Assembly: GCA_005862225.1 (NCBI GenBank)
Contig: SZXV01000006.1
Coordinates: forward strand, 18,367-82,366
Source: Chlorobium sp.
GTDB taxonomy: Bacteria > Bacteroidota > Chlorobiia > Chlorobiales > Chlorobiaceae
DNA: 64,000 nucleotides
Direction: 5' to 3'
Shown: positions 25,327-63,065 of the stretch, piece after piece
How positions within the stretch are numbered: the stretch's first letter is position 1
How the letters are laid out: every line of letters begins with the position of its first letter
Made by a program: the position numbers and the translations under genes
Notes under the pieces: generated by a model
The model's database searches: none
The model's input: the letters and a program-made list of their open reading frames with translations, nothing else
What the model was told of the DNA's origin: nothing

Positions 25327-28300
25327 TTAAGCCTTGCCGCCAAGCCGATGCACAAACACGCTTCCGGCGAATTCTGCCTCCTCCGCAATGTCAACAATTT
25401 TCTGGTGGTGGGTAAAGAGAATCACCTGGCTTTTTTCAGCCAGATTGCTCAGTGCTTTAATGGTTGCCCGTGAACGAGCATCATCGAAGTTGATCAGAAT
25501 ATCATCAACAATAAAGGGCATGGGCTCGCTTGATTCTGAGCGCCATTCGAGTGTGGCAAGGCGCAGGGCAAGGTAGAGTTGATCGCGGGTTCCGGAGCTC
25601 ATGGCATCAACATGCAGGCGAATACCGTTTGGTCGAAGGCCGATCAGGATTGGGTTGTCATGGTCATCACTGTCGGTACGCAGACTTGCAAATGAACCTA
25701 TGGTCAATTGGCTGAAATAGCGTGAGGCCATTTTCAGAAGCGGAGCTTCGTTTTCGTTTCGGTAGCGCTCTGTCTCCTCACGAAGAATTTTTTCGGCGAG
25801 TTTGATACGGATATAGCGCTCGGTGAGACGACGGATTTTTGTGAGAGCGTTCTGGAGTGCATCTGCAAGTGTTGCAGCCTTGCCGCTGCCATCCATTCGT
25901 TCAAGTTCGCTTCTCTTTCTTCCTATTGTTTCGGACAATTGCTGTATCCCGGGATCAAGCAGGCTTGTTATCTCGTTGTTCAGGTTATCGATACGACCTG
26001 GCAGCTCATCAAAATCAACTGCGTCAGCCTGAGCTTCAAGGTTGGCAATGGTTGCTCCCTCTGCAATCCGGGTCAGTCGGCTTTCAATGTCGAACAACCT
26101 TTCATGAAGTTTTGTGTAATGCAAGGAACGTTGCTCAGCCTCAAGCAGCTCTTCGCGAGTATTGCAACAGGCTGACTGGCGCATGACCGCAAGATGCTCT
26201 TCGCAGTTTCGAACGTTGGTTTCAGCGATGATAACTGCTTTTTCAAGGCTCTCTCTCTCTTTCCTGTCTCGCAGCAGAATAGCCTGATCCTGACTGGCAC
26301 GACCAAGACGCAGCTTGAGTTCCGTCACGGCAGCCTTGGCATCAAGTCCGGCAAGGTCAGGAGCAATCTTTGTTACAAGGATCATGACATCTTTCTCAAA
26401 AAGTGTTGTGTCACGGTCAATCCCCTCAATCCGTTTCCGAAATTCGTCAGCTTCTCTAAGACGTTCAAAACAGCTTTGTAGAGCCTCAAGAAAATCAAGC
26501 GCCTCTGAGGGAAGAATATTGCAGTCAAGACCAAGTGGAGAAACTGATTCAGCCCAGTCGGCTCGCCATTGGCGCAACTCTGATTCAGCAGCTAAACTCT
26601 TATCCCTTAAAATATAAACAGAATTGTTGATGTCTGAAAGTTTTGCCGACATCACGTCTCTTTTTTTTTGATGTGCTTGCAGGGTATTCAGCAAAGATCG
26701 GGCAACGTCAAGAAGTGTCTCAAGTTCCCCGCCCGGAAATTCCCCCGATCCACCATGTGCAACAACCTCTTTGAGGAGGCTGACCCTCAACTCTTTGCGA
26801 CGTGACATCTTTTCAGTCAAATCGCTTGCAACTTTTTCCACATCTCTGACCTGAAGACGCAAACGATCAAACGAAGAAAGCCAGGCAATCATTTCACGGG
26901 GAGAGAGTGGCTCAATTCCGCAGAAAGCCCAAAGCTCCTGCCAGCGGCGGTCAAGGTTTTCAAAAGCTTCCCTGATACATCTCTCTCCTTCAAGAAGCAC
27001 CGCCAGACGCTTCTCCATGTTTTGAGCTTCGGCCTTCATTGATGAGTATTGCTGAACTCGATCTGCCTCATGATAAAGGCGATCAGCAATCCGGTCAGAA
27101 AGCAGGACCATCTGCTCATAAGCCACGTGCAATGGCAATGCAGCATCAAAACGTTTACTCTCTTCAACAACATCTTCCTGTTGCAGCCATTGACGGCAAA
27201 GAAGCTGCCATCCCTCTTCGCGCCTGCTCCTGCTCGCTGTCAGCTCCTCTTCTACCGGCAAATCAGCAGCCAACTCCAGATTATGTAATTGTTCCACCCT
27301 CTTCGCAAAATCCTTTTCAAGCATATCTTTCTCGACCTGAAGCTGGCGTTGCAAGTCCGCCTGTTCACGAAGCTCTTCATCAAAGCGGCTCACGCTCTCG
27401 GGCAATGGCAACGCCAGATGAGGCACAAGCTCCAGCGCTCCCTTCCAAAGTTCGAGCCGATTCAATAAGGCATAACATTCACGCTCTCCCTTCTCCCGCT
27501 CCTTTTCCAGCATTGTGATTTCCCGGTCGAGATCAGCGCCCCTTTCTGCGGCAAGCAGAGCACGAGCCAGTTGACCGGTTTCAGCAACAGACGGAAGCAT
27601 CTGCAATTCAGCACGAACTCTTTCCAGAGATGTTTCGGCGTCCTGCACCTGCACCTGCGCATTGCGACTCCCCTGCAAAAGAACCTCATAGCGCGAAGCA
27701 AGATGATGCACCGTCTTGCGCTTTGAAAGACCCGGACGAAGGGTTTCGACATTGTTGAGTGAAAACCCGGGCTTGATCTGGCTGAGAAGATCAGCCGCTG
27801 CCTTCCGGGCACCAAGACGCTGCCCTTCCCGCAGGGGACGGTCATTCTTTCCTTTCCGGTACTCTCCAAGCCGCTGATGCAACTCCTCTATGGTACCAGC
27901 CTCATCCAGCACATCTTGATTGAGGCAAAGAGCGTTCATCTTTTCACGAACCGCCTGAAGCTGTGCCTGCAGTTGCTCAAGCTGTAGCCGTGCTGCCCTC
28001 TCTTCCTGCTCAATGACCGTGCGTCTCTCGCTGAAATCAACCGGAAGAATGATAACATCTCCATATTCCTCAAGCTTTTGAAGCAGAATTTTACGCTCCG
28101 ACAAATCAGGCATTGCCTGTATCAATCGTTCAAGACGACGTTTTTCCCTCTCCAGCTCTTGCTTTGTCTGCTGACTCTCTGCCAGCTTTTTCAACGCGTC
28201 ATCCAGAGCCTGCTGATGCTCCTCCCACTCTCGGCCTGAGAGTGTCGCCTGTTTCAATTGGCTTTGCAGCTCCTTGTGGCGGGCAAGGGCTTCATTGAGC

Positions 28301-28842
28301 AACTGCCGTGATCCTTGCGGTTTGAAAAGACTCTCTCCCTCGGCTTCAAGCTCATCCATAAGCGGCTTCAACGACGCAAGACCGGCACCTGCCGCAAAAA
28401 GCGCCTTGCCCACCTCGCCCTGCTGATCAAGAATGCCTTCTCCGCCGCGAATGAGGGTTTCATGATTAATGCCATACAGAGCCGTAAAAAGATCCTTTTC
28501 AAGAGTATGCAGATAACGCGCCAACGCGGATGGATCTATCGGATGATCATCCTGGTCAAACAAATCTTTCGAATTTTTTTTCCGGCGGTAACAGGTCAGC
28601 TCCTCGCCATCGCTCCCTTGCAGGCATCCGCCGACAAGAAGCTGCTGATTCTGGTGTATGAAATTATCGCCGGTGCGTACGGGAAAACCAAAAAACCATG
28701 CGTACAGCGCTCGCATAGCACTGCTTTTGCCCGCTTCATTTGGGCCGTAGACAATGTGCAAACCCGGAAGAGGGGATGAAAAATCGAGCACCTGACCCGA
28801 AAAGGGGCCAAAGGCTTTCAGCTCCAGACGTTTGATCTTCAT
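25327..28842 (-). CDS. YhaN-like SMC/Rad50-type AAA ATPase
   Basis: YGPNEAGKSS Walker A, long coiled coil, MSSGTRDQLYLALRLA, PFIVDDILINFDD. Confidence 0.9.
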   Translation of the reverse strand: MKIKRLELKAFGPFSGQVLDFSSPLPGLHIVYGPNEAGKSSAMRALYAWFFGFPVRTGDNFIHQNQQLLVGGCLQGSDGEELTCYRRKKNSKDLFDQDDHPIDPSALARYLHTLEKDLFTALYGINHETLIRGGEGILDQQGEVGKALFAAGAGLASLKPLMDELEAEGESLFKPQGSRQLLNEALARHKELQSQLKQATLSGREWEEHQQALDDALKKLAESQQTKQELEREKRRLERLIQAMPDLSERKILLQKLEEYGDVIILPVDFSERRTVIEQEERAARLQLEQLQAQLQAVREKMNALCLNQDVLDEAGTIEELHQRLGEYRKGKNDRPLREGQRLGARKAAADLLSQIKPGFSLNNVETLRPGLSKRKTVHHLASRYEVLLQGSRNAQVQVQDAETSLERVRAELQMLPSVAETGQLARALLAAERGADLDREITMLEKEREKGERECYALLNRLELWKGALELVPHLALPLPESVSRFDEELREQADLQRQLQVEKDMLEKDFAKRVEQLHNLELAADLPVEEELTASRSRREEGWQLLCRQWLQQEDVVEESKRFDAALPLHVAYEQMVLLSDRIADRLYHEADRVQQYSSMKAEAQNMEKRLAVLLEGERCIREAFENLDRRWQELWAFCGIEPLSPREMIAWLSSFDRLRLQVRDVEKVASDLTEKMSRRKELRVSLLKEVVAHGGSGEFPGGELETLLDVARSLLNTLQAHQKKRDVMSAKLSDINNSVYILRDKSLAAESELRQWRADWAESVSPLGLDCNILPSEALDFLEALQSCFERLREADEFRKRIEGIDRDTTLFEKDVMILVTKIAPDLAGLDAKAAVTELKLRLGRASQDQAILLRDRKERESLEKAVIIAETNVRNCEEHLAVMRQSACCNTREELLEAEQRSLHYTKLHERLFDIESRLTRIAEGATIANLEAQADAVDFDELPGRIDNLNNEITSLLDPGIQQLSETIGRKRSELERMDGSGKAATLADALQNALTKIRRLTERYIRIKLAEKILREETERYRNENEAPLLKMASRYFSQLTIGSFASLRTDSDDHDNPILIGLRPNGIRLHVDAMSSGTRDQLYLALRLATLEWRSESSEPMPFIVDDILINFDDARSRATIKALSNLAEKSQVILFTHHQKIVDIAEEAEFAGSVFVHRLGGKA

Positions 28843-30086
28843 GACCGGCCTCCGATCCTGCCCATCAGCAGCTCTCTCACCTCATCCCGCAGGGCTGCAA
28901 GTTCTTCCTCATCCAGTCGAAACGGGTCACCATCATTCAGCAGATCAGAAGGAAGCTTGCTGCGAAGTTTCTCGAATTCCGGAACTAACCCTATGAGGGT
29001 TGACTTTTCAAACTGAAACGATTCAATGGAATGAAACAATGCACGGAGAGGAAATTCATCAGCAAAATCTGCCTGCAACTCATCCCGGCTCCTGCTCTTC
29101 AGGACGACCTTTTCAATCCAGACATCACCAAGAGCAGCCGCAACACCTCGAACCTCCTCACTCCACTGCATCGCTTTCTCATGCAATTGCCCATGAAGCG
29201 ACGTTACACCATCCACAAGAAGACGAACAGCAAGTGAACGACCATCAGCCTTAGCCCGCTCCTCTTCCAGAAGATCACGAACGAGATCTGAAAGAGAGTC
29301 GATGGTATCGCATCCAGCAGGGTCAACGCGGCAGAGCACCCAGCGAAGAACATCAAGTTCCCGCTCTTCAACGGTGATAACCTGACCCTCCTCGACTGAG
29401 ACAAGCGAACACCCTTTTGCGCCAATCTCACGAATATGACGTCCCTGAATATTGCCGGGAAAAACCACCCATGGGTCACGGCAAATCTCTTCGCGTTGAT
29501 GAACATGGCCAAGCGCCCAGTACTGGTAACCTTTTGAAACGAGAGCATCAAGCGTACAGGGAGCATAAGGCTCATGACCCGGGCGCCCGTTCAAACTTGT
29601 ATGAAGGAGTCCAATATTAAACAGCGCCGGATCGCCTTGCGGATAGTTCCGGACAAGATCATCCATCACCGAACGGGCAGAGAAACTCTGGCCGTGTATG
29701 GCAACTCCGTACTGTTCAAGGTGATGAGTTTCTGCCTTGCGATGCGGAAAGAGGATAACATTATCGGGAAGTTTCAGCGACCGGGTAATCTGGCTCGCGG
29801 CATCGTGGTTGCCGGAAACCATCATCACCGGAATACCTGCGTCACGCAGCCGACCCATACGGCTTACAAAATAGATACCGGTGTTATAGTCTTTCCAGTC
29901 GCCATCGTAGAGATCACCAGCAATCAAAACAAATGCAACCTTTTCGTCAACAGCCAATTGAACAAGATTGTCAAGTGCGCGACGGGCAGCAAGCCTGATC
30001 TGCTCAACTGGGGCATCCTGATATTCCTCAAGCCCTTTGAGAGGACTGTCGAGATGGATATCTGCCGCATGCAGAAAAGTAAACAT
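28839..30086 (-). CDS. YhaO-like Mre11/SbcD metallophosphoesterase nuclease
   Basis: AADIHLD, AGDLYD, SGNHD, WALGHVH motifs; 4-bp overlap with the ATPase gene. Confidence 0.9.
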   Translation of the reverse strand: MFTFLHAADIHLDSPLKGLEEYQDAPVEQIRLAARRALDNLVQLAVDEKVAFVLIAGDLYDGDWKDYNTGIYFVSRMGRLRDAGIPVMMVSGNHDAASQITRSLKLPDNVILFPHRKAETHHLEQYGVAIHGQSFSARSVMDDLVRNYPQGDPALFNIGLLHTSLNGRPGHEPYAPCTLDALVSKGYQYWALGHVHQREEICRDPWVVFPGNIQGRHIREIGAKGCSLVSVEEGQVITVEERELDVLRWVLCRVDPAGCDTIDSLSDLVRDLLEEERAKADGRSLAVRLLVDGVTSLHGQLHEKAMQWSEEVRGVAAALGDVWIEKVVLKSRSRDELQADFADEFPLRALFHSIESFQFEKSTLIGLVPEFEKLRSKLPSDLLNDGDPFRLDEEELAALRDEVRELLMGRIGGRS

Positions 30087-30174
30087 GAAACAAAGTGAGC
30101 ACAATAAAATAAATCAGGCGAAAAGCCTGTTCTGTAACGTCATGCTCAATATAGGGAGAAGCGTTGTTTTGCAG

Positions 30175-32328: not shown

Positions 32329-33573
32329 ATGCAAAAAACGATTACAAAAGCATTTTCTTTCAAAACACTGCTCAGCTTTCTCGGCCCCGGGTTTCTTGTT
32401 ACCGTAGGTTTTGTCGATCCGGGCAACTGGGCCACCAATATTGAGGGAGGAGCAAAATTCGGCTACGAATTACTCTGGGTTGTTACTCTCGGCACCATCA
32501 TGCTGATCATTATTCAGCATATTGCAGCCAAACTTGGCATAGCCACCGGAAAATCACTGGCCGTCAACATCCGCGACTCTTTTCCGAAACCGGTGACCGC
32601 ATTTCTTGGTTTTACTGTCGTTCTGGCCTGTATTGCAACTGATGTTGCTGAGCTTCTTGGTGGAGGCATCGGGTTCAGTCTTCTGTTTGGCATACCCCTC
32701 TGGGCGGGATCACTGATAACCCTTCTTCTCAAGATTTTTCTGGTTATAAGTCAACGGTATCACCGAATTGAAACAATTATTGTCAGTTTTCTTGGCATAA
32801 TCACCTTATGTTATCTGGCCGAGCTTTGGATGGTAAAACCGGACTGGACAGCAACAGCGACAGCACTCGTTGTACCAAAAGTGCGCAGCGAAAGTATTTA
32901 TATAGCGCTCGCCATTCTTGGCGCACTGGTCATGCCTCACAACATATTTCTTCACTCCAACGTCATTCACAGCAGGAAATGGGGCATTTCTGAAGAAGAG
33001 AAGATGGATTTACTCCGATACGAAAAAATGGACACTCTTCTTGCCATGACTCTGGGCTGGATTGTCAACTCTTCAATGATCATCGTTGCTGCGGCAATCT
33101 TCTTTAAAAATAAGATCCCGGTCAACACTCTCGAACAAGCTTCGGCAACATTGATACCAATTGTGGGTCACTATGCCAGCCTGTTATTTGCCATAGCGCT
33201 TATTTTTTCAGGCGTTGGCTCATCGATGACATCTTCTATGGCTGAAGCCGATGTCATCACAGGATTTCTGGGCAAGCCAGAAGATCCCCAAACGCCATTA
33301 TATCGGCTCTCCGTTTTTGTGACGGCTATTCCGGCATTCATGATTATTTTATTCAGCATCGAGAGCTATAAGATCCTGATTTTCAGTCAGGTCATTTTAA
33401 GTATCCAGCTCCCTTTTACCCTGCTGCCTCTTCTCATTCTCAGCCGAAATCAAAAACTTATGGGCAGCTTTCGAAGCCATAATGTCGAGTTTGCAGCAGC
33501 ATTACTCATATCCGTGACAGTTATTGCCCTCAATATCTATTTTTTGTATACGACCGTAACCCAGGGAAACTGA
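32329..33573 (+). CDS. Nramp/MntH divalent metal transporter
   Basis: GFVDPGNW and ALVMPHNIFLHS metal-binding motifs. Confidence 0.9.
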   Translation: MQKTITKAFSFKTLLSFLGPGFLVTVGFVDPGNWATNIEGGAKFGYELLWVVTLGTIMLIIIQHIAAKLGIATGKSLAVNIRDSFPKPVTAFLGFTVVLACIATDVAELLGGGIGFSLLFGIPLWAGSLITLLLKIFLVISQRYHRIETIIVSFLGIITLCYLAELWMVKPDWTATATALVVPKVRSESIYIALAILGALVMPHNIFLHSNVIHSRKWGISEEEKMDLLRYEKMDTLLAMTLGWIVNSSMIIVAAAIFFKNKIPVNTLEQASATLIPIVGHYASLLFAIALIFSGVGSSMTSSMAEADVITGFLGKPEDPQTPLYRLSVFVTAIPAFMIILFSIESYKILIFSQVILSIQLPFTLLPLLILSRNQKLMGSFRSHNVEFAAALLISVTVIALNIYFLYTTVTQGN

Positions 33574-34068: not shown

Positions 34069-34473
34069 TTACCGAATAAAGAGGTAAACGATCATTCCTG
34101 CCAATACAGCACCAACTCCAGCAAAAATGAGAGATTGACGAATGAGACCGATTCTATGCAGCTCCATCCGCTGCACCAACGACGTATTCTGTTCAGCCAG
34201 TGTCTTGAGCAATCCAGATGATGCCTGAAGTTGTTCCTCCAAACTATCCACTCTTTGTGCCAATAGATCCAACCTTCCTTTTAGGATATCACTCTCCGAA
34301 AGCTCGGTGCTATATGAGGAATAAACACTGCTCTCATCAACTGAAAGAGGCTTTTTTTTATTTTTAATGGTAGTCCAGAGAGTTCCCGCCCTCTCTGCCA
34401 CGGTTGGCGCAAGCTCAATCACTTTATCCCATGGAATCTGAGAGGCAACTTTCAGTATTGTTCTTGCTAACAT
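34069..34473 (-). CDS. Hypothetical protein (coiled coil, C-terminal TM)
   Basis: 134-aa ORF with an IPWDKVIELAP N-terminus and a hydrophobic C-terminus. Confidence 0.65.
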   Translation of the reverse strand: MLARTILKVASQIPWDKVIELAPTVAERAGTLWTTIKNKKKPLSVDESSVYSSYSTELSESDILKGRLDLLAQRVDSLEEQLQASSGLLKTLAEQNTSLVQRMELHRIGLIRQSLIFAGVGAVLAGMIVYLFIR

Positions 34474-34631: not shown

Positions 34632-36834
34632 GTTTCAATCCACGCGCCCGAAGGGGGCGCGACTAATGATGAAAATCTACCTTCTGACAAATCTTTGTTT
34701 CAATCCACGCGCCCGCAGAGGGCGCGACCAGATTTAACGCTTTTGTTGACGGAGATGATTGAGTTTCAATCCACGCGCCCGCAGGGGGCGCGACTCAGCC
34801 GGGGCTATCACCCCTGAAGAGGTGCGTGTTTCAATCCACGCGCCCGCAGGGGGCGCGACTATCCAGCCTTGATAATTTTTTCGTAGCATGCAAGTTTCAA
34901 TCCACGCGCCCGCATGGGGCGCGACTTGCTCTCTTTCTCCTGATTCTCCACCTTTTATTGTTTCAATCCACGCGCCCGCATGGGGCGCGACCCGGCAAAG
35001 TCAGTGATCGAGTTGTGGTAGGCTTGTTTCAATCCACGCGCCCGCATGGGGCGCGACTTTGTTCCGATCCACGGCAAGGCGTCACCACCGGTTTCAATCC
35101 ACGCGCCCGCATGGGGCGCGACCGAAAATGTTGACCGCTTTCCGCTCTTTTTTGCCGTTTCAATCCACGCGCCCGCATGGGGCGCGACTTTTTGTAGCTT
35201 GCTTCATGCTGGACTACTATGTTTCAATCCACGCGCCCGCATGGGGCGCGACTCACCGGGATTGATTTGCTCACCCATAAATTTCTGGTTTCAATCCACG
35301 CGCCCGCATGGGGCGCGACGGCCTCAGGTAAGCGTCCGTTATCATTTAATGCAAAGTTTCAATCCACGCGCCCGCATGGGGCGCGACCGTTCACTTTTTC
35401 TTTCTAAACTTCAAAAATTTGTTTCAATCCACGCGCCCGCATGGGGCGCGACTTAGTCTGGTTGAACTGGCGCGCTTTTCAAGGCGTTTCAATCCACGCG
35501 CCCGCATGGGGCGCGACATTTGTAGATTGATTTCGTGCACCGAGGGCAGAGTTTCAATCCACGCGCCCGCATGGGGCGCGACTTAAGAGTATCGCCAGGC
35601 AAGACCTCATCGACAGTTTCAATCCACGCGCCCGCATGGGGCGCGACTTCGAGAGTGCCGCCTATGTTGCTAGGTACATCATGTTTCAATCCACGCGCCC
35701 GCATGGGGCGCGACCATGGTCATGGATTCCATTCCCACTCTTTTTCTGTTTCAATCCACGCGCCCGCATGGGGCGCGACTGCTATGCAGACCTCGCAGAT
35801 CTCCCAGCAGCTTAAGTTTCAATCCACGCGCCCGCATGGGGCGCGACCTGTCATTGCTCGACGACCCTACTCGCCGGAGCGTTTCAATCCACGCGCCCGC
35901 ATGGGGCGCGACCAACAACACGAGCAACAGGTGTATTGCTCTCGATGTTTCAATCCACGCGCCCGCATGGGGCGCGACCAGAATTAAAGACGGCTTGTTC
36001 GCCAAGTGCCTGTTTCAATCCACGCGCCCGCATGGGGCGCGACTTATCTCTCCTCGACGATCCGTCTAGACGGAGCGTTTCAATCCACGCGCCCGCATGG
36101 GGCGCGACAATAGATTGCATAGCAATCTGGAAATCAGATACAGTTTCAATCCACGCGCCCGCATGGGGCGCGACTCAGGCCTCCCCAGCGGAGCCCCGGG
36201 GCTCCGCAGTTTCAATCCACGCGCCCGCATGGGGCGCGACAGGAGCGCTGAATATCAGCACTCGGGGTTATACCGTTTCAATCCACGCGCCCGCATGGGG
36301 CGCGACGAATAGCCTCACCGCGAGAAGTGGCAGTCCAAGGTTTCAATCCACGCGCCCGCATGGGGCGCGACCTCGACAAAAGACTTGTGGAATCCATGCC
36401 CATGTTTCAATCCACGCGCCCGCATGGGGCGCGACTTTGCAACTCACCAGCGTCCCTTAAAGTAATAGTTGTTTCAATCCACGCGCCCGCATGGGGCGCG
36501 ACTTGGGTATCAGGAGCGGTATGCCGAGTATCGGTACGTTTCAATCCACGCGCCCGCATGGGGCGCGACGCGGGCATCCCTCTCGTATAAACGTTGGATC
36601 TGGTTTCAATCCACGCGCCCGCATGGGGCGCGACTTACCACCAATAAGACCCATAACACCGGTAGCAACAGTTTCAATCCACGCGCCCGCATGGGGCGCG
36701 ACCTCACGCTGATGACTTGTGCTGGACATGCGCTCCTGGTTTCAATCCACGCGCCCGCATGGGGCGCGACTTAACACCAGTACGCTTGCGCAGACGTTTG
36801 AGGTTTCAATCCACGCGCCCGCATGGGGCGCGAC
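34632..36834 (-). CRISPR. Type I-C CRISPR array: 34 repeats (32 bp), 33 spacers (32-36 bp)
   Basis: Repeat on + is GTTTCAATCCACGCGCCCGCATGGGGCGCGAC (crRNA sense ends ATTGAAAC). Variant repeats lie at the 34.6-kb trailer end and cas2 is adjacent at the other end. Confidence 0.98.
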
Positions 36835-37010
36835 TGTCTAACTGTAATATCAGGCATTTCGTGGTTTTAACGTGGCCTTAACGCGAACCACTTCGTATGC
36901 CAAAAAACATTTTACGAAATCCTGATAATAAAAACTATAACCACAAAAATATTAAGCGAATAGGGATATCGCGAACATACCGGGAAAAGAGGTACAGCTT
37001 GACGTTCGCG
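36835..37010 (-). promoter_or_regulatory. CRISPR leader
   Basis: AT-rich non-coding stretch between cas2 and the first canonical repeat, with GCGAAC/GTTCGC motifs. Confidence 0.8.
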
Positions 37011-37301
37011 CTACACAATCAATATGCCTTCAAGATCCCGGGGCTCTTTGGCACCTTCGTGCTCAATACGATTTTCCCAGTTTGATCCGAGAAAATAAAA
37101 ACGCAAACTGTCATGTTTGTGATCCATCTCATGAACAAGCTTACCTCGTAATTTTACCCATTGCGCAGGATCGACATTGCACTCAAACACAGAAAACTGA
37201 ACACGCTGCCCATAATTCTGACAAGTCTTGGCAATACGGCGCAACCTCCTTTTTCCTGCGGGAGTTTCGGTATTAACATCATAAGTGACCAGAACCAACA
37301 T
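37011..37301 (-). CDS. cas2: Cas2
   Basis: MLVLVTYDV...RVQFSVFEC...DSLRFY. Confidence 0.96.
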   Translation of the reverse strand: MLVLVTYDVNTETPAGKRRLRRIAKTCQNYGQRVQFSVFECNVDPAQWVKLRGKLVHEMDHKHDSLRFYFLGSNWENRIEHEGAKEPRDLEGILIV

Positions 37302-37304
37302 GGT

Positions 37305-38336
37305 TTATCTCCAGACAAATGGCGGATAGGTATCAATATCGCCCCGGATATGACGAGCAAGCAGCATTGCCTGCATATGCCAGAGTAAACCGATGGCCAT
37401 TTTCTCTTTGACAAACGGGTGCTCAATCTCCTCCTGCTTCCGATTTTGATAAGCGGTTAAAAGCGTTTTACGGGCATCGTCTTTCAAAAGCACTGCTCCT
37501 GTTTCAGAGACAGTAAAATCATTGGACTGAATCTGGCCCCGATTGATCAACGACAGAGCCAACCGATCAGCAATGTAGGAACGGAACTCTTCAATCATGT
37601 CAAGCGCAAGGCTTGGCCGCCCCGGCCTGTCTTTATGAAGAAATCCTGCAGCGGGATCAAGCCCACACGACTCAAGCGCAGAACGAATATCGTGAGTAAG
37701 CAGCGTATAGAGAAAAGAGAGCAGGCAATTTATTCGATCAAGCGGCGGGCGACGGTTACGTCCGGTAAAACGGAATAATGGGTCAGAAGAGGTAATACAC
37801 TCATCGAAAACATCAAAATAAACTTTGGCAGCCTCCCCTTCAATCCCCCTGATACGCTCTTGATTGGTTTCATCCCGCAAGCGCTTCACGCAACCAGCAA
37901 GGACATGCTGAGCATTTTTCAACCTGACTGCGTTCACTTTTTCTGGATGATCTCTTACCGTCCTTGCAAGAGTTATCCGGGCATTACCAATTTTTCCAAT
38001 AACAAATGAGCGTGCAAGACAGGCTGTCTGCAAGTCATTATCAGCCATCCGATACTGTGCTCTCCGCAACAAAATATTACCCCGTGTAGCTCCCTGAACC
38101 TGACAAAGATATTTTCCGTATTGACTTAAAAAAGTTACTGTTACACCGGTTTCAGCACAATGACCAAGCAGAAACGGACTGCACGTCACCGCTCCAAAAC
38201 AGACAATTACATCAAGCATGTGAAGAGGAATACGCGTTTTAACCTCTTTTTCTATTTTGATAACAGCACACTCCCCCTCTTTTGAAAGATAAGCTCCCTG
38301 CGTGGTGACAAAAAGGGTATTGAGATATTTTTTCAC
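37305..38336 (-). CDS. cas1: Cas1 (type I-C)
   Basis: GTG start at 38336 ([13 protein letters not shown]) with GGAGGAG upstream; RGIEGEAA, LDMIEEFR, YPPFVWR. Confidence 0.96.
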   Translation of the reverse strand: MKKYLNTLFVTTQGAYLSKEGECAVIKIEKEVKTRIPLHMLDVIVCFGAVTCSPFLLGHCAETGVTVTFLSQYGKYLCQVQGATRGNILLRRAQYRMADNDLQTACLARSFVIGKIGNARITLARTVRDHPEKVNAVRLKNAQHVLAGCVKRLRDETNQERIRGIEGEAAKVYFDVFDECITSSDPLFRFTGRNRRPPLDRINCLLSFLYTLLTHDIRSALESCGLDPAAGFLHKDRPGRPSLALDMIEEFRSYIADRLALSLINRGQIQSNDFTVSETGAVLLKDDARKTLLTAYQNRKQEEIEHPFVKEKMAIGLLWHMQAMLLARHIRGDIDTYPPFVWR

Positions 38337-39004
38337 ATCTCCTCCTCCGAGAGTGTTTGAAGCAATTTTTGAAGGTACACTTTCGCCGATTTTCCCTGGG
38401 CAATCACCTCCGGCAGACACTCCTCTTTCAGGGAGCAGAGTTTGCATTTTGGCCCTGGGTCAGGTGGCGGCGTTACTCCATTCCGAAAAAGATCATGCAC
38501 TCCTTTGGCGGCAAGGCTTGTGCTTTCACGCAAAGCGTCATCGAAATCAACATCAAACCGATGTTTTGTCTGACCATAAAAAAGGGCACCTGCCGGAATC
38601 TGAATGTCGAGCATCTCCTCAAGGCAGATTGCCTGGGCACAAAGCTGGATTTTATCGGCATCATGTTTTTTCGGCTTGCCCCGCTTGTATTCAACCGGAA
38701 ACGGCTCTTCATGATTCTCCAGTTTATGCCATTCCACAACATCAGCCACACCGGAAACCCCAAGCAGAACGCTTCGCAATGCCGCACTCCTTGTTACCCG
38801 AACACCACTGCGATACGATGTTTTGCCATCATCAACCCGCTCATGCATCTCCCGGCCCTCAGCAGTATAACTATTCTCGCTCCATATCTGTTCGAGATGG
38901 ATCAAGGCGCACTGCCGGGGACAATAGACAAAATGCTGCAGTGCAGAGAGGGCGATGAAATCGGATTCGGGGTACATGGCATCTGTGTTATCTTTGTTAG
39001 CCAA
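38333..39004 (-). CDS. cas4: Cas4
   Basis: [25 protein letters not shown]-terminal CxxCSLxxxC. Confidence 0.95.
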
Positions 39005-39896
39005 GTTTTCTAATCAAATTGACCTCACCAAGATCATTGTCATTCACAGTTACGGCATAGTCCTCAAATGAACGAGCGGGGCCAGAAAGAGCGTTCTTCC
39101 GTTCTATTGTAATCCGGTCAAACAGGGCATAAGCCGGTGCATTGCCAAGTGCTGTGCTGTGCTCAAAGACATACAACCCCCTTGTTGCCATCATTCCCCT
39201 TGCTGCCGAACGGTCATGCTCGAACATGTTCAGCAATGAGTCCCAGAACAGGTTGAGATCCTCTTCGGAAAAACCAGTCTGATTTGCGAGATGAGCTGAA
39301 ACAAAACCGGATGCCCGATAAAGGCCATAAGGCACCGTATATTTGCGACCCATTGTCCGATTATCTCCGCTTTGTTTTTCAGCTTCAGCTTCTGTAGCAA
39401 CTGCCATTCTGGTAATACTGTGCTCCAGTGCCACAATCGGTTCAATAGAACGAGCAAAAGTTAACTGGACAGGCCCGCGAACCTGACCTGCATTTGCACC
39501 AGTTGACATAACAGCACCAAATGTCCGAATATCATAATACTGCTTACACATTTGCGCACGGCCTTTCTCGACCTCGCCACCTTGCGCCGTACCATCCTTA
39601 TTTCTCTTCTTCCCATCTTTTTGATCTGACGGCTCTTTAGTCAAATCAATTTTTAGATCTTCATACGCTTTATCGATCAAAAGATTGAGAACACCTTTTT
39701 CTTTGATGAAAATGTTTTGCCCAGAAAGCTGGACATAGTTCCGTACCTTTCGTTTCAGACAAACATCAGTCACCAGCCCCATTCCCGTCTCAGCATCTAT
39801 GCGGGGAAGATTGCCAGCATCAGGATCACCATTAGGATTGCCATCTTTCACATCAAACAACAGGACGAAATCATACCGTTTTTCGAGATTACTCAT
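38997..39896 (-). CDS. cas7: Cas7c (Csd2)
   Basis: [41 protein letters not shown]. Confidence 0.96.
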
Positions 39897-39901
39897 TGTG
39901 T

Positions 39902-41635
39902 TCACCCCTCATTTTTGTTTTCATTGTTTGAAGAACTTGTAAATAATGCCTGCCTCTGGTGGTAATATCCAATGGCAAAACGGGACTGATCTTCCATAGC
40001 CAGATGAGATGGCATTTCCGAGCCAATACCGTCAAAAATTTCAGTCAACATTCGCTCAAAGTTGATCTTTCTACCAACATTTTCAAGCTTGGCAAGATGA
40101 TGGTTTTTAAGCTTCAACAACTGCGGAAAAACTGTTACCGGTGACGATGACGCTGCACCATAGAACCTGTCACGAATTGTTGCATTCAAACCGGGATTTG
40201 CCTCTTCCTGGATTTTTTCAAGTACAGCAAAAAGACGCCCGAGACGATAACCCGGATTATTATTGGCAGTATCAAGAGCCACAGTGATCTCCTTTTCTTT
40301 GGTTGAGTGAATTCTGTAATATCGATTGAGATAAGCCTTCAGGATACCTGCCTGCATTCTGGTAACATCCCTCGTAGCCCGGATTCGACGAATGGTTTGC
40401 TGAAGCATTGTTGCCGGATAGAGCGAACCTGTCAGTACAGCCTGAACAATTTGGCCAGAAAGATTTGGCGGAACATTATCAACCTTGTTTTCCAAAGCCA
40501 TAGCAGAAAGAATCCAGAACAAAGCATAACGCCCCGTATCCTTTGGAGAACGAACAATTTTAAGGTCATCAAAATGCTGCCTGATTTTTTTGGCAAAGTC
40601 TTGAACTACTCCCTCATGCCAGAATCTTACTGAAAGACGTGCTGCATTAGGAGCAAGCCCAAGAACATAAAATCTCGTTTGAGAATCGCCGCCAGTATAA
40701 CCAGTAAAGACCCCTTCGTAAAGAGCGTTGACTGCGCGAACGTCAGCATCAGGATCATCTTTTGGGGGAAGAGCAAAAAAGGATGGGAAAAAATCTTCAA
40801 ACGCTGTAGGCTTTTGTGCCCAAAAGATGGTCGTGGCATCGCCAGCTTGAACTTTATTTTTAGAATCCTTACCAAGCAGCATATTCAGCACAGTGGTGTA
40901 AGCAAAAGCTGCAGATTCACCAATCGGCGCATTGTAATTCTGAGTTTTACCATAAGATTCAAAAGCTTTCAAATTAAACGATACCAAAGCAGCGCCTGAT
41001 GATTGAGCACCACGAACTCCCTTTATGGATGCATTAAGCCTGGCAATTGGTTCTTGAGCACCTGATACAAGGCAAATTCCAGTGCCTTCAACTTCTTGAT
41101 GCTTCAGGATATAGGGTTTCATCGTATCGCACAGGCTTGCGCTCTTTGATCCCAAAACCCTGAAGATCACATTAGCATTATTTTCATGTGCTTCTTTCCA
41201 GAGCTTATTTTCTGACTCTTGGGAGGTAATCTGTGCAATGGGATTGTGCTGAAGAAACTCAACCAATGGTGCTACAAGTGACGTTGATGTCTCTTCTGGG
41301 AATGTTTCTTGTAATCGGTTAAGAAATGCATTCTTCCGAGCATCAATGTCATTACGATCACGGGGATTTGCTCCCAGTGCATATTCAACATTGTCCCACA
41401 GCAAGTTTGCTTTAACTCCGACTGTTTTTTTCTCAGCAGCAGGCACTAAAAATACTTTTGCCCGTTTCTTTTTCCCATCCCCTTCACGAGTATCTTCAAG
41501 CGCCACAAAATTACCATCGTTATCAATAACAATCACAAAGGGGATTTCCTTCCACTCAAATCCTTCTGGCGCAATGCCACTATCAGAATCAGCCGCCTTG
41601 CGCTGATAATAGTCGTAGAGTGCCTGTAAAATCAT
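39902..41635 (-). CDS. cas8c: Cas8c (Csd1)
   Basis: [15 protein letters not shown]...[36 protein letters not shown]. Confidence 0.96.
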
Positions 41636-42345
41636 TTTTTCACCTCCTCACTTTCCCAAGCTGGAATTTCAATGACCCCATTTTTTAACTGGGCTCTAAA
41701 AAAAGCTGGGGCTGGACTATCTGGTTTTATTACAAAGTCGAGATCGTACAACATGAAACCGAGATCGCGAGTCTCATCAATGGCTTTTTGCTCTTGAGCT
41801 ATATCATCAATCAGCCGAAAATCACAACTGAATTCGCGACAACCGAGATAGGGTTGGTTGAAACATTGCCCTTTGCTGGCCCGTCGCTCAAACATAGCGT
41901 TGTATTTACCTGGATTCTCATCTTTTTGCCACTCATCCTTTTCGCTGTTCTCAAGCAAAGCCTCCATTACCGGACGAATAACTTTTGGTCTTGCCGGAGG
42001 AGGAATAAACTCCAGCTCAGCATGGAGTCGATAGGCCACATCTTGCAAAAAAAGTCCCGCTCGTTGTTGACGGTTATCTTCTATAAAAATACTGCGGCTT
42101 CGTTCACTGGCCGTAGTCCCGACCTCATTGCGCCGTACCGAAACCCATTTGATTGGTTTTAAAATCTCAATTTTTAGGATATGCCATTTGATGGCCGGTT
42201 TCCAGAAAATGGCCTCAAAAATCCCTCGTGCGGCTGACGGAGTAATCACGTCGTAGCTGACACGCTCAACTTTCATCTCCGGTCTTGTGAAACAGGCATA
42301 ATCTCCCTTGACTTCGAGACAGAATATTTTGTTGCAGTATTCCAT
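41632..42345 (-). CDS. cas5: Cas5c (Cas5d)
   Basis: GDYACFTRPEMKVERVSYDVITPSAARGIFEAI; PYLGCREF. Confidence 0.96.
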   Translation of the reverse strand: MEYCNKIFCLEVKGDYACFTRPEMKVERVSYDVITPSAARGIFEAIFWKPAIKWHILKIEILKPIKWVSVRRNEVGTTASERSRSIFIEDNRQQRAGLFLQDVAYRLHAELEFIPPPARPKVIRPVMEALLENSEKDEWQKDENPGKYNAMFERRASKGQCFNQPYLGCREFSCDFRLIDDIAQEQKAIDETRDLGFMLYDLDFVIKPDSPAPAFFRAQLKNGVIEIPAWESEEVKK

Positions 42346-42368: not shown

Positions 42369-44607
42369 TTACCAGTACAAATTTGGGGTTGCTTTGACAT
42401 CAAGACCGAATACCGGGTCATACAAATTTTTGTCAGTCTGTACCCAGATACCATTAACCTCTTCAATCATTCCGTTTTTATGCATTTCCTGCAGATCACG
42501 ATCGTAAACGTTGACTGAAAAGCGTTGCAATTTCCTCATCAAATTTCTGCTTGGGCCGATAAAACGCAATTGATTTATCAATTTTTCATTATCAGTCGTC
42601 TCCGATTGATACCGGACAATCAAGCCGTGCTGCTGTGCGTCATCAATAAGCTTGAACCGAAGCGCTGCCGTACGGAACTGAATCTTGAACTGCCGTGCAT
42701 CAGGCCCGGCAAGGAGATCCATGATCTGCTTTTTATCAAAATCATTCAGTCGGTTGAAATACAAGTAGAAGTATTGTCTGAAAGCTTCCGGCATCAGTGA
42801 TGCAGCAAGTTCAGGATAAACGCGAAACATCTCCTGCCCTGCCTGCTCTGCTTTCAGCATCACTCCTGCGGGTGGAGGCTTTGGTGGATTAAAAACAAAA
42901 ACTTCCCCCTTTTCCAATTTCCCTTCACGATTGCAGCGACCGGCGGCCTGCGCAATACTGTCAAGTCCGGTAAATGCCCTGAAAACAACAGAAAAATCAA
43001 TATCGACACCCGCTTCAAGCAGTTGTGTGCTGATCACTCGCACAACAATATTTTCTTTCAGCATTGATTTAATTCCAGTAATAACCTCACTGCGGTGTTC
43101 GGGGCACATCAGGGCTGAAAGGTGAACAGTCCCTTCGGGCATAATACCATGCAGGTCCCGACAATCGTTTCGAGTATTAACGATACACAACACTTGTTGA
43201 TATTTACGGAGCTGTTCAGCAACAGCTTGCCACTCCTGACGTTCATCTGAAGCGCCAAACATCTGAATATTCACACGCTGAAAAATCCTGAACAGATTTT
43301 CAGGGTCGGACATCAATTCCCGAACACTACCTTCGCTGAATCCTTTCAGAACATTCTGCCCTGAACCAATTCTGCCTGACAATACCGGCTGTGTTGCCGT
43401 ACAAAGCACAACAGAGGTTTTAAAATATTCTGCCAACACGTTTATAACCGAAACGATCGGTTGCAGATATTCAGTAGGCAGCATTTGCGCTTCATCAAGC
43501 ACAATCACTGAGTTGACGATGTTGTGCAGTTTTCTGCAAGCCGAGCTTTTAGAAGCAAAAAGCGACTCGAACAACTGGACATTCGTTGTGACAATAATCG
43601 GTGCATCCCAGTTTTCCGTTGCAAGTCGTGATTTTGAATCTTCTTTTTCCGAATCGAAATTACTGTGATGTTCAAGCACGGCATCATTGCCAAACACTTT
43701 TCGATAAACATCTGCCGTCTGCTCAATAATGCTGGTATAAGGAATGGCAATGATAATCCTCTTTTTGCCATGTCTGATGGCATGATTAAGGGCAAAAGCC
43801 ATTGATGAGAGGGTTTTTCCTCCACCGGTCGGCACGGTCAGCGAAAATAACCCGGATGCCAGCCCGGCGTTGTTTCTGCAATCATCCAGAATGGTTTTTC
43901 TTGCTTCATTAACCGGACTCTTTCGAGCCTCATCCTGTTTTTTATCCATGAACGAATCAAAAACAACCTTCAATTCCGCAAGGTTACATACACTTGTGCG
44001 AAGGTCAGCCTTTTCCGGACTCATAAACGACTCCGTATCAAGAAAATCGGCATCAACCAGACAGGAATAGAGCATTCTCACCCAGATATGCACGGCATCA
44101 TTATCCTTGAAAACCATTTTGCAGGGCGGTGTAGAAGGCAACGAAACATCCAGAATATCCTGTGGAGGATTACCTGACAAAGCTTTCTGTAAATTTTCAG
44201 CAACCATTAACCGACCAGAAAGAGCCCCTCCAACACCCTGCTCATGTTCCCAATCAGGTAATCCTGCATGATGCCCAGCGATGAGGTAGGCAAGTATTCG
44301 ACCAATGCTTTCATTTTTGTGAACCGCGTAAAGCGCACCAGCAGAAGAATGATCAATCTTGCCCATTATCCTCCTCGGAATAATCACCGTTGCTTCTGCG
44401 GATATATTCCTGCCACTGAGGATTGTATTTTCCAAGATCGTGTAACACACCGGCAGCTTTCGCCCAGTCTCCATTACCAAATTCATCGGCAAACAGGGCT
44501 GCTTTTTCAGCAACATGGATAAGATGATCTTTCAGGTCATGGACTTCCCATAAGCCATCAGAATTTTCCCGAAGATGGGCGACTGGTTGTATAGATTGTG
44601 CTGCCAT
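42369..44607 (-). pseudogene. cas3: Cas3 (HD nuclease-helicase) split by a frameshift inside the HD domain
   Basis: The 5' ORF has HL...LHDLGK and stops at 44353. The 3' ORF has DHS, AGHHAGL, LVDAD, PTGGGKT, DEAQ, QAAGRCNR. The span is 3n+1, and removing one G at 44362-44364 fuses them. Confidence 0.88.
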
Positions 44608-53313: not shown

Positions 53314-54582
53314 TTATTGGAAAATATTGGGAAAGAGTGCACTGACGCCATACATGGTGGAGAGAATGATGATCGATCCAACAATAACGCTGCTGATAAT
53401 ATTCTGTAATCGTGTATTGGCATACTCCCCCATAGTTTTTTTATCGTTGAGCAGCAGAATGAGAAAAACAAGCGCCGCAGGAAGAAGTGTTACCGCTACA
53501 ACCTGGACAAAAAGTGTGATGAGTACAAGCGGCGCGCCCGGAATCAAGGGAACAACTCCGGCCGTTATCAGGGTAAAGAGAAAAGAGATATAAAACCAGG
53601 GGGCTTCTTTTACCTTGGTGTTGAGTGAGTGCGCCCATCCAAAGATCTCTCCGAATGCCCATGAGCTTGCGAGAGAAATACAGATCGCCCCGAGCAAACC
53701 GGCATCAAACAAACCAATCGCCATGAACGCTCCGACATAATGATTTGTTTTCATCAACAATTTTGCTGCGGTAGCTGCATCATCAATTGGCGCACCATTC
53801 AGAAGCGTGCCGGTTACAATGACAATGAAAATCGCAATGGCAACAGTGATAATCGCGCCGATAAAGGTATCGATTTTGCCCATTTTGATATCTTTTTCCT
53901 GCAAGCCTTTGTCAACCACCGAGCTTTGCTGAAAAAAAAGCATCCAGGGAGCGATTGTCGTACCGATATTGGCCATCAGCAGAAAAAAGAGCTCATTGGT
54001 AAGACCTCCCGGAAGATTTGGAATCAATCCATGACTTGCAATATCGGCAATTGACGGGTTAACCATAAATGCCGCTGGAATATAAATCAGGTTCAAAAGA
54101 CAAAACCCAAGGGCGATTTTTTCCCAGGTCCAGTACCGGCCATTCAGCACGATAATGCTCATGAGCAGGACCACAAGAATGACGGTCAACCATGCCGGAA
54201 CACCAAAAATGCTTAACGCTGCTGTCATGCCGACAAATTCAGTCACGAGTGTCAACCAGTCCACAATCATGAGATCAAGCAGCGAAAACCACCCCCAGAA
54301 AGCACCAAAACTTTCAAAAATAGCTTCGGCATGTCCACGTTTGGTCACTGCCCCCAACCTCACGGTCATCTCCTGTACATAATAGGCCACCGGGATAAGA
54401 AGAAGCAAAAACCATATAAGGTGATAACCATATTTGGCGCCGGTAGCGGCATAAGTAGTAATGCCCCCGGCGTCATTATCAGCAATCATCACAACAAGAC
54501 CCGGACCTGCAATGACAAGGTAGAGGCGAACAGCTTTCCAGACTTTTTTAAACCGGTAGTAGAGAAGAGAAAAAAAATCCAT
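53314..54582 (-). CDS. Nramp-related transporter (NRMT-like, probably Mg2+)
   Basis: IADNDAGGITTY replaces DPGN; GTTIAPW replaces MPH; next to an MgtE_N/CBS gene. Confidence 0.82.
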   Translation of the reverse strand: MDFFSLLYYRFKKVWKAVRLYLVIAGPGLVVMIADNDAGGITTYAATGAKYGYHLIWFLLLLIPVAYYVQEMTVRLGAVTKRGHAEAIFESFGAFWGWFSLLDLMIVDWLTLVTEFVGMTAALSIFGVPAWLTVILVVLLMSIIVLNGRYWTWEKIALGFCLLNLIYIPAAFMVNPSIADIASHGLIPNLPGGLTNELFFLLMANIGTTIAPWMLFFQQSSVVDKGLQEKDIKMGKIDTFIGAIITVAIAIFIVIVTGTLLNGAPIDDAATAAKLLMKTNHYVGAFMAIGLFDAGLLGAICISLASSWAFGEIFGWAHSLNTKVKEAPWFYISFLFTLITAGVVPLIPGAPLVLITLFVQVVAVTLLPAALVFLILLLNDKKTMGEYANTRLQNIISSVIVGSIIILSTMYGVSALFPNIFQ

Positions 54583-54914
54583 ATCCGTCGAATTGGACGT
54601 TGACGAGACCCGGCATTGTGATTGAAAGAGAGAGGAGAAGCATTTCACTCAGAGAGAGTCGTTCAGACTTACCTGTCAATCAGGCGCAAATTTACAATTC
54701 TTTGGTAACTTTACAAAGCAGGATATCTTATATAAAGCCCGCTATTTGCGCATTAACAATAGAGAAATGGGAGTTATACTTTTGAGGCAATCATTCATCT
54801 ATTTGTTTTCGCGAGTAAATACACAAAATCACCAACGTCCCTTTAACCAGGGGATGATTTTTTCTATTATATTGATGCTCAAATTATCTATATGTTTACT
54901 TGCAGAATTTCTTT

Positions 54915-62900: not shown

Positions 62901-63065
62901 TCCCCTGCAAACAGTGTTTACACCATTGTCGAAGAGAATGATGGGGATGACAATAAAGAAGTCCCGCAACAGCCGGTTATCGCTGATAAAAGACCAGGAC
63001 GTAATGATCTGTGCCCCTGCGGAAGTGGAAAAAAATATAAAAATTGTCACGGCCAACAGCCCTGA
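59991..63065 (+). CDS. secA: Preprotein translocase SecA
   Basis: [38 protein letters not shown]-terminal [17 protein letters not shown]. Confidence 0.98.

Follow-up and report, generated by a model that had tools for sequence, protein, structure and literature searches.

A type I-C CRISPR array in a freshwater Chlorobium with many spacers attributable to gokushovirus-like Microviridae

Which phages are recorded in the CRISPR (clustered regularly interspaced short palindromic repeats) array of a freshwater green sulfur bacterium? The locus that raises this question lies in a stretch of 64,000 nucleotides (nt) of a Chlorobium sp. assembly (GenBank GCA_005862225.1, contig SZXV01000006.1, positions 18,367 to 82,366), which we call the window and whose numbering is used for all coordinates below. 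It consists of an array of 34 repeats and 33 spacers (numbered S01, the oldest, to S33, the newest) beside a cas operon. A first-pass annotation, made by a model from the sequence alone, had described the array as dominated by spacers against gokushovirus-like Microviridae and had listed spacer translations resembling the major capsid protein (VP1), the replication initiator (Rep, or VP4) and the DNA pilot protein (VP2). We know of no cultured phage of green sulfur bacteria, and the host of most environmental microviruses is not known. Our analysis leads us, with high confidence, to read the array as a record of repeated encounters of a freshwater Chlorobium with two or more diverged gokushovirus-like Microviridae and with at least one Mu-type tailed phage.

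Evidence for a microviral origin came from three comparisons, each made against shuffled spacers. The concatenated spacers were searched with blastn against 50,697 phage records (INPHARED), with matches judged by organism names; 127 records were matched, nearly all of them microviruses, and capsid genes were hit in nearly all of the 40 matches listed, whereas the shuffled control matched 3 records, zero of them microviruses, with a best E of 5. An ungapped six-frame BLOSUM62 scan of a panel of 119 IMG/VR contigs (fetched by a back-translated S29 pattern, nearly all of 4-5 kb) placed 11 spacers at or below 0.008 relative to 396 shuffled-spacer nulls. Finally, profile hidden Markov models (HMMs) of VP1, VP4 (Rep), VP2, VP3 and VP5 were built from 253 IMG/VR microvirus contigs, and with 3300 shuffled nulls 12 spacers reached p <= 0.015: S10, S13, S15, S20, S21, S27, S29 and S30 for VP1, S16 and S33 for Rep, S32 for VP2, and S23 for the scaffold protein VP3. 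Together with S17 and S25, which homology or motif ties to VP1 beyond the HMM set, the tests show 14 of the 33 spacers to encode fragments of microvirus VP1, VP2, VP3 and Rep (Table 1). The peptides listed by the first-pass annotation were all reproduced by six-frame translation at the same coordinates and strands, and the HMMs uphold its seven VP1 peptides, FESAAYVARYI and LKRLRKRTGV as Rep, QERMSSTSHQRE as VP2, and VSDFQIAMQSI, which it had called scaffold-like, as VP3. The outcome that it had named as fatal to its proposal, translated spacers aligning no better than shuffled controls, was looked for, and these twelve spacers of the HMM set lay far above the shuffles. It had overlooked S13, S17, S25, S01 and the S19/S22 twin, and the range that it gave (35253-36802, or S10 to S33) left out the nine oldest spacers.

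The VP1 peptides are collinear with the capsid gene of L121, a gokushovirus that served as reference and is described below. A probe of 540 residues, in which only the VP1-type peptides of the spacers were spelled out, each at its place in the profile, and X filled the rest, matched 8000 proteins in a search of 5.8 billion; the best 120 all belong to PF02305 (Phage_F), with E down to 1e-36. Phage_F homology and collinearity were thus both found for the spacer targets, and the other gokushovirus core genes (Rep, VP2 and VP3) are represented by their HMM-assigned spacers. The relatives retrieved are nearly all contigs of 4.0-5.4 kb, most of those checked having terminal direct repeats, and they carry PF09675, PF20577 and PF23343. 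As in the known Gokushovirinae (Chp2, phiMH2K and SpV4), the targets appear to combine a Phage_F capsid that has the gokushovirus motifs with a VP4 Rep, a VP3 scaffold of the Chp2 type and a VP2 containing FQERMS, and their relatives have circular genomes of 4.1-5.3 kb; they differ from the known members in that the targeted lineage is itself apparently without a sequence, the best VP1 proteins from the probe search sharing 80 of the 107 spacer-encoded residues.

An earlier claim that linked Chlorobiales with Microviridae was retracted as PhiX contamination (PMC10064758). The peptides might likewise be chance or low-complexity matches, or might stem from the PhiX174 sequencing control, but shuffled controls fail in the blastn, panel and HMM tests alike, Chlamy_scaf and Phage_ORF5, both present in the related genomes, belong to gokushoviruses and not to PhiX, and read contamination is impossible for spacers that lie inside a chromosomal array, each flanked by repeats. 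We therefore rejected this explanation, which we hold to be extremely improbable.

Several assignments draw on additional matches. S17 has a 17-nt reverse match to S27 at 94% (15 of 16 on reading the aligned letters), and GHGF is present in 82 of 251 VP1 proteins. The S25 motif P.A[DE]I[QP]RS is present at the N-terminus of 136 of 251 VP1 proteins and in zero other microvirus proteins, KRLRK (S33) in 121 of 235 Rep proteins and only in Rep, and a peptide nearly identical to that of S20, IESNTPVARVI, in VP1 P0029. Four further spacers, S01, S11, S19 and S22, are probably microviral. S01 matches, at 17 of 18 nt, the Rep gene of L404, a contig that encodes one of the best VP1 proteins of the probe search, the common motif being ENLPSD. 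ASGKRPLSFNA (S11), a weaker Rep candidate of the first-pass annotation, is weakly supported: the motif is found in 6 of 235 Rep N-termini, and only there, and is not significant in the panel or HMM test. S19 and S22 are identical at 23 of 33 nt with one residue changed, a divergence that points to a protein-coding origin, and they resemble the VP3 consensus LEFLSDPENRE, although the motif is seen in only 3 of 232 VP3 proteins. The other weaker candidate, the pilot-like VATGVMGLIGG of S31, did not rise above the shuffles and was rejected. S24 (36175-36208) holds a perfect 20-nt palindrome, GCGGAGCCCCGGGGCTCCGC, evident as a self-reverse match; this palindrome could be derived from a hairpin or terminator of its target.

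Table 1. Coordinates of the array, its leader, the cas genes and the spacers with a predicted origin
Feature	Position	Strand	Translated peptide	Predicted assignment and support
CRISPR array	34632-36834	-		Type I-C; 34 repeats, 33 spacers; newest spacer S33 at high-coordinate end
Leader	36835-37010	-		Between cas2 and first repeat; assigned by position
cas2	37011-37301	-		PF09827, 5e-26; TIGR01573
cas1	37305-38447	-		Type I-C DVULG class; TIGR03640, 523 bits, above cut-off
cas4	38333-39004	-		TIGR00372, 152 bits
cas7/csd2	38997-39905	-		TIGR02589, 421 bits
cas8c/csd1	39902-41635	-		TIGR01863, 601 bits
cas5c/cas5d	41632-42345	-		TIGR01876, 260 bits
cas3	42369-44516	-		Helicase core clear, TIGR01587, 123 bits; N-terminal HD match weak (TIGR01596)
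S01 (oldest)	34664-34696	+	NDENLPSDKS	Probably Rep; panel test p=0.005-0.008, HMM p=0.10
S09	35189-35220	-	IVVQHEASYK	Non-microviral; Mu-type portal gene of Chlorobiaceae prophages
S10	35253-35287	-	QKFMGEQINPG	VP1; HMM VP1 positions 101-111, p=0.0009; blastn matches on capsid genes
S11	35320-35355	+	ASGKRPLSFNA	Possible Rep N-terminus, weak
S13	35453-35485	+	LVWLNWRAFQG	VP1; HMM VP1 positions 95-105, p=0.0006
S15	35583-35615	-	VDEVLPGDTL	VP1; HMM 8.5 bits, no shuffle that high
S16	35648-35682	+	FESAAYVARYI	Rep (VP4); HMM 12.9 bits; same peptide in L121 Rep
S17	35715-35747	+	HGHGFHSHSFS	VP1 site of S27, opposite strand, diverged variant
S19	35848-35880	+	LSLLDDPTRRS	Twin of S22; coding, possibly VP3 C-terminus
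S20	35913-35946	-	IESNTPVARVV	VP1 C-terminal region; HMM p=0.014
S21	35979-36011	-	ALGEQAVFNS	VP1; HMM p=0.0085
S22	36044-36076	+	LSLLDDPSRRS	Twin of S19; coding, possibly VP3 C-terminus
S23	36109-36142	-	VSDFQIAMQSI	VP3 scaffold; HMM VP3 positions 86-96, p=0.0045
S25	36241-36274	-	GITPSADIQRS	VP1 N-terminus; by motif, HMM alone not significant
S27	36372-36403	-	GHGFHKSFVE	VP1; HMM p=0.0003; exact peptide in L403
S29	36503-36537	+	GYQERYAEYRY	VP1; HMM 18.3 bits; 33/34 nt identical to robinz microvirus RP_115
S30	36570-36602	-	QIQRLYERDAR	VP1; HMM 12.9 bits
S32	36703-36738	-	QERMSSTSHQRE	VP2 pilot protein; HMM 18.9 bits
S33 (newest)	36771-36802	-	LKRLRKRTGV	Rep; HMM p=0.004

Gene content and repeat structure show the locus to be a predicted intact, chromosomal type I-C CRISPR-Cas system with a complete operon. 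Seven cas genes, in the order cas3-cas5c-cas8c-cas7-cas4-cas1-cas2, lie on the minus strand directly beyond the high-coordinate end of the array and were typed with Pfam and subtype-specific NCBIfam models (equivalogs or exceptions); the cut-offs of TIGR01863, TIGR02589, TIGR01876, TIGR03640, TIGR00372, TIGR01573 and TIGR01587 are all exceeded. The signature set of the subtype (cas8c/csd1, cas7/csd2 and cas5c with cas3, cas4, cas1 and cas2) is therefore present in one operon, and no cas6 was found, the list of open reading frames (ORFs) giving seven contiguous cas genes and no eighth. The repeats, 32 nt long and read on the plus strand as GTTTCAATCCACGCGCCCGCATGGGGCGCGAC, are separated by spacers of 32-36 nt each; in the sense of the CRISPR RNA (crRNA), which is the minus strand, the repeat reads GTCGCGCCCCATGCGGGCGCGTGGATTGAAAC. 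Its fold, a stem of 7 bp that closes a loop of 5 nt and is followed by a 3' tail of 11 nt with ATTGAAAC at its end, is canonical for type I-C, and the array stands downstream of cas2. Because this canonical fold is that of the minus-strand repeat, transcription of the array is assigned to the minus strand, the leader to the interval next to cas2, and the newest position to S33. Repeats from 34894 onward are identical (n=30), and the first four (at 34632, 34697, 34763 and 34828) are variants, which marks the low-coordinate end, the one distant from cas2, as the trailer end. Repeat fold and repeat degeneracy hence show a predicted minus orientation with the leader adjoining cas2; a scan of the leader for a sigma-70-like promoter found none, a scan that is uninformative for this phylum.

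The system resembles the type I-C (Dvulg) systems of Desulfovibrio vulgaris, Bacillus halodurans and Legionella pneumophila in gene set and gene order, in a 32-nt repeat with a GC-rich stem and the same 3' ending, in spacer length and probably in a 5'-TTC protospacer-adjacent motif (PAM), and we see no mechanistic difference from them. The loop variant CATG is peculiar to this genome, relatives carrying CAGG, CGTG or CGCG. Loop variants are also found in the four oldest repeats (34632-34859), as CGAAGGGGG, CGCAGAGGG and CGCAGGGGG (twice). The CAGGGGG form of repeats 3 and 4 is identical to the repeat of another genome of the comparison set (G003) and to that of the published CRISPR2 array of Chlorobium clathratiforme, which suggests that the CATGGGG form arrived later in this lineage.

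The PAM could be approached through homologous sites in related microviruses, rather than through the protospacers themselves. At the predicted PAM position (upstream in the crRNA sense) TTC is found at a mean of 22% of these sites, as against 0.2% at the opposite protospacer end and a background of 2.0%, an 11-fold enrichment at the predicted position. The frequency is 56% for S16, 37% for S25 and 30% for S13, and in 88-100% of relatives the PAM position of S20, S30, S32 and S33 is taken up by a conserved phenylalanine (Phe) codon, either TTT or TTC. An exact TTC also precedes both prophage homologues of S09 (see below). These observations support the assigned orientation and the use of the canonical I-C TTC PAM, as far as homologous sites can speak for protospacers. 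Among the 12 strongest spacers 9 are coding-sense and 3 antisense, a split that is not significant (p=0.15); the suggestion of the first-pass annotation that both phage strands were sampled is borne out, and fits a double-stranded replicative form as both the source of the spacers and the DNA that is attacked. Three pairs of spacers fall on the same sites: S13 overlaps the S10 site by five codons with a different sequence, so that S13 would come from a second virus variant; S17 and S27 occupy one VP1 site on opposite strands; and S19 and S22 are twins in the same register. These pairs show that the array sampled two or more diverged variants of the virus.

On established I-C biology, from which the steps that follow are taken, Cas1-Cas2-Cas4 would take prespacers of 32-36 bp, each beside a 5'-TTC PAM, from phage DNA in its double-stranded replicative form; Cas5c would cleave the array transcript to yield crRNAs whose 5' handle is 11 nt long; and Cascade (Cas5-Cas8c-Cas7) would locate TTC-flanked protospacers on the replicative form, which Cas3 would then degrade.

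How much of the array is microviral depends on how many such spacers the tests can detect. We calibrated this by holding out L121, whose VP1 has no more than 62% identity to that of any panel member, and rebuilding the HMMs without it. At the cut-off reached by 12 of the 33 spacers, only 45% of random L121 34-mers are detected; at the stricter one of 3.3 bits, reached by 8 of the 33, only 36-39% are. Given this low sensitivity, many unmatched spacers are expected to be microviral yet undetectable, and if the distance of the real targets from the panel is about that of L121, the microviral share of the array could be roughly 60-80%. The first-pass term "dominated" is an overstatement: 14 spacers are shown to be microviral and four more probably are, and a majority is reached only by way of the calibration.

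Not every spacer is microviral. S09 has matches of 88-92% nt identity in two other Chlorobiaceae genomes (G046:C10, L343; and G010:C20, L344), in a gene of family PF06074 (Portal_Mu) that adjoins a terminase in prophage-like regions, and a near-identical, independently acquired counterpart stands in the I-C array of a third genome (G042); the array thus appears to record at least one tailed Mu-type phage as well. None of the eight spacers S02-S09 looks microviral in the HMM test, fourteen spacers have no match of any kind, and most of the targets reported for the arrays of C. clathratiforme are tailed phages (Sulcius et al. 2021, Genes 12:886, PMC8226683). It is accordingly conceivable, although we consider it the less probable case, that the array is mixed, with about 40% of it microviral and the rest drawn from unsequenced Chlorobium tailed phages, prophages and other elements. 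Two observations speak against such a composition: the limited detectability of held-out gokushovirus 34-mers just described, and the placement of the assigned spacers, all 14 of which are among the newest 24. Except for the probable S01, none is among the oldest 9 (a calculation by hand puts the hypergeometric probability of 0 in 9 near 0.002), and this confinement suggests a shift toward microvirus encounters over the history of the array.

The record of gokushovirus-like phages extends beyond this genome. Near-identical I-C repeats are present in 40 of 138 Chlorobia genomes, and for comparison we took 744 spacers from cas2-adjacent arrays of 28 other genomes. At least 3.3 bits against the microvirus HMMs were scored by 25 of these spacers, from 10 genomes and three genera (null rate 0.0005), and the array studied here is enriched relative to them (8/33 versus 25/744, Fisher p=2.9e-5). 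Several of the 25 fall on sites common to this array and those of other Chlorobiaceae (ESAAYVARYV, ERDARGG, QIQKLFEQDARG, TAHQREVADLK and IQD[DN]PP[IV]DRVI). Another Chlorobium genome (L402, G029:C43:48000-60000) has a type I-F-like array with repeat GTTCACTGCCGGACAGGCAGCTTAGAAA and 109 spacers, at least four of which are strong VP1 spacers (YFTSALPWPQ, MPVYSVPGLI, ADEALPGDTF and WDNFQKFMGE).

The reference gokushovirus L121 (G096:C163, 1-4373) is itself a separate contig in an assembly of the same genus: a complete circular genome of 4232 nt plus a 141-nt terminal overlap, with 42.6% G+C and the genes Phage_F, Chlamy_scaf and Phage_ORF5. It is not a direct target of the spacers at the nt level. 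Temperate gokushoviruses and Bacteroidota microvirus proviruses exist, and this circular contig within a Chlorobium assembly would be compatible with spacers taken from integrated or episomal gokushovirus-like proviruses of Chlorobium or its neighbours instead of from lytic infections by free virions. The Phage_F search of the 138 Chlorobia genomes argues against this source, since the free 4.4-kb contig was the sole match and no integrated copy was found, and so does the lack of a self-target in the host's own genome. That genome also contains no second array with this repeat and no microvirus capsid gene. We judge a proviral origin improbable and continue to read the array as a record of encounters with gokushovirus-like phages.

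Searches for the targeted virus returned relatives only. With blastn-short, all spacers against the 253 IMG/VR microvirus contigs, the best match was S29 at 33 of 35 nt, and no contig matched more than two spacers. S29 has 0 exact matches in IMG/VR and JGI metagenomes; back-translated S13 and S21 gave 0 matches in IMG/VR; the S19/S22 consensus gave 0 in IMG/VR and its peptide-level pattern 0 in metagenomes; and back-translated S27 found one IMG/VR contig (L403), which is not close outside that site. The contigs encoding the best VP1 proteins of the probe search (L404 and L405) have no near-identical spacer matches, and no near-identical virus genome was present in any collection searched, similarity being confined to single spacers. 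The first-pass annotation had looked to a convergence of hits on one clade of genomes; no single clade could be retrieved. No sequence of the targeted lineage seems to be present in these collections.

Five points weigh against our interpretation. No true protospacer was found: in exact or peptide-level scans for S29, S13, S21, S27 and the S19/S22 consensus, the closest similarity in IMG/VR, JGI metagenomes or INPHARED was about 94% along a single spacer. S15, S21 and S29 lack TTC at the homologous position in every panel genome. The L121 contig may have been binned with G096 in error and so need not prove infection. The fourteen spacers without a match find none in the panel, the HMMs, 72,556 plasmids or the host's own genome. 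Lastly, the HD domain of Cas3 (TIGR01596) scores 39.3 bits, below the cut-off of 43.45, and is the sole sub-threshold model of the operon.

The host link that the first-pass annotation presented as new had in fact been proposed before. Sulcius et al. (2021, PMC8226683) reported one Microviridae genome from single-cell genomes of C. clathratiforme and two microvirus spacers in an I-C array, and proposed that Microviridae infect this species. The array in question, CRISPR2 of the C. clathratiforme consensus genome from Lake Kirkilai, belongs to the same genus and has a repeat one base off from that studied here. Its spacer 16 (QERMSNTAHQRE) has the same VP2 site, register and 36-nt length as S32, and its spacer 5 (ERDARGGTRYI) overlaps the S30 site; the two arrays differ in density, with 2 of 31 microvirus spacers there and at least 14 of 33 here. 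Five of the published spacers, both microvirus ones included, were checked and none occurs in the window, in the nine-spacer cas2-adjacent I-C array fetched from G096, or in any other fetched locus. The present locus strengthens the earlier proposed Chlorobium-microvirus link and involves no new mechanism; it is a clean and dense instance of a type of infection record already known, and what is new is the density of microvirus spacers, their spread over the Chlorobiaceae and the finding that the PAM coincides with conserved Phe codons. A two-spacer hint of 2021 thereby becomes a consistent pattern over three Chlorobiaceae genera and two CRISPR types, which supports the view that these keystone anoxygenic phototrophs are truly and often parasitized by gokushovirus-like phages, and the spacers and the conserved Phe-flanked sites can serve as probes for finding the virus in lake viromes.

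Arrays of other Chlorobiaceae contain spacers from the same conserved sites next to Phe codons, and both TTC and TTT are common at the Phe sites of related genomes. We offer, as a speculation that we think doubtful on present evidence, that an unsequenced gokushovirus-like lineage is a main, recurrent predator of freshwater Chlorobium, and that different Chlorobiaceae species repeatedly acquire the same protospacers because the TTC PAM coincides with Phe codons upstream of conserved capsid, pilot and Rep motifs; the virus might then escape by synonymous TTC-to-TTT changes, which would leave its proteins unaltered. Were this true, it would provide a testable model in which PAM-codon coupling shapes the arms race between CRISPR and single-stranded DNA phages in anoxic lakes.

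The identity of the host follows from SecA (59991-63065), which is 90-91% identical to that of many freshwater Chlorobiaceae/Chlorobium metagenome-assembled genomes and 83-84% identical to that of C. ferrooxidans and Chlorobium sp. KB01. The SecA identity places the host, as predicted from this marker, in freshwater Chlorobium, in keeping with the first-pass supposition of a green sulfur bacterium. The host genome comprises 2.5 Mb in 13 contigs with 45-49% G+C, and the neighbours of the array are ordinary chromosomal genes, including an SbcCD-like pair, MFS and Nramp transporters, Usp, molybdopterin synthesis genes and SecA. A 134-aa ORF (34069-34473) with no Pfam match lies directly past the trailer end of the array. 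The SbcCD-like pair (25327-30104, minus strand), an AAA_27/SMC_N ATPase of 1171 aa and a metallophosphoesterase of 421 aa, is located about 4.5 kb from the trailer end and may be an ordinary repair or a defence-associated nuclease. The 64-kb window contains two genes for Nramp-family metal transporters (32329-33573 and 53314-54648), the first of which is followed by the gene for a universal stress protein.

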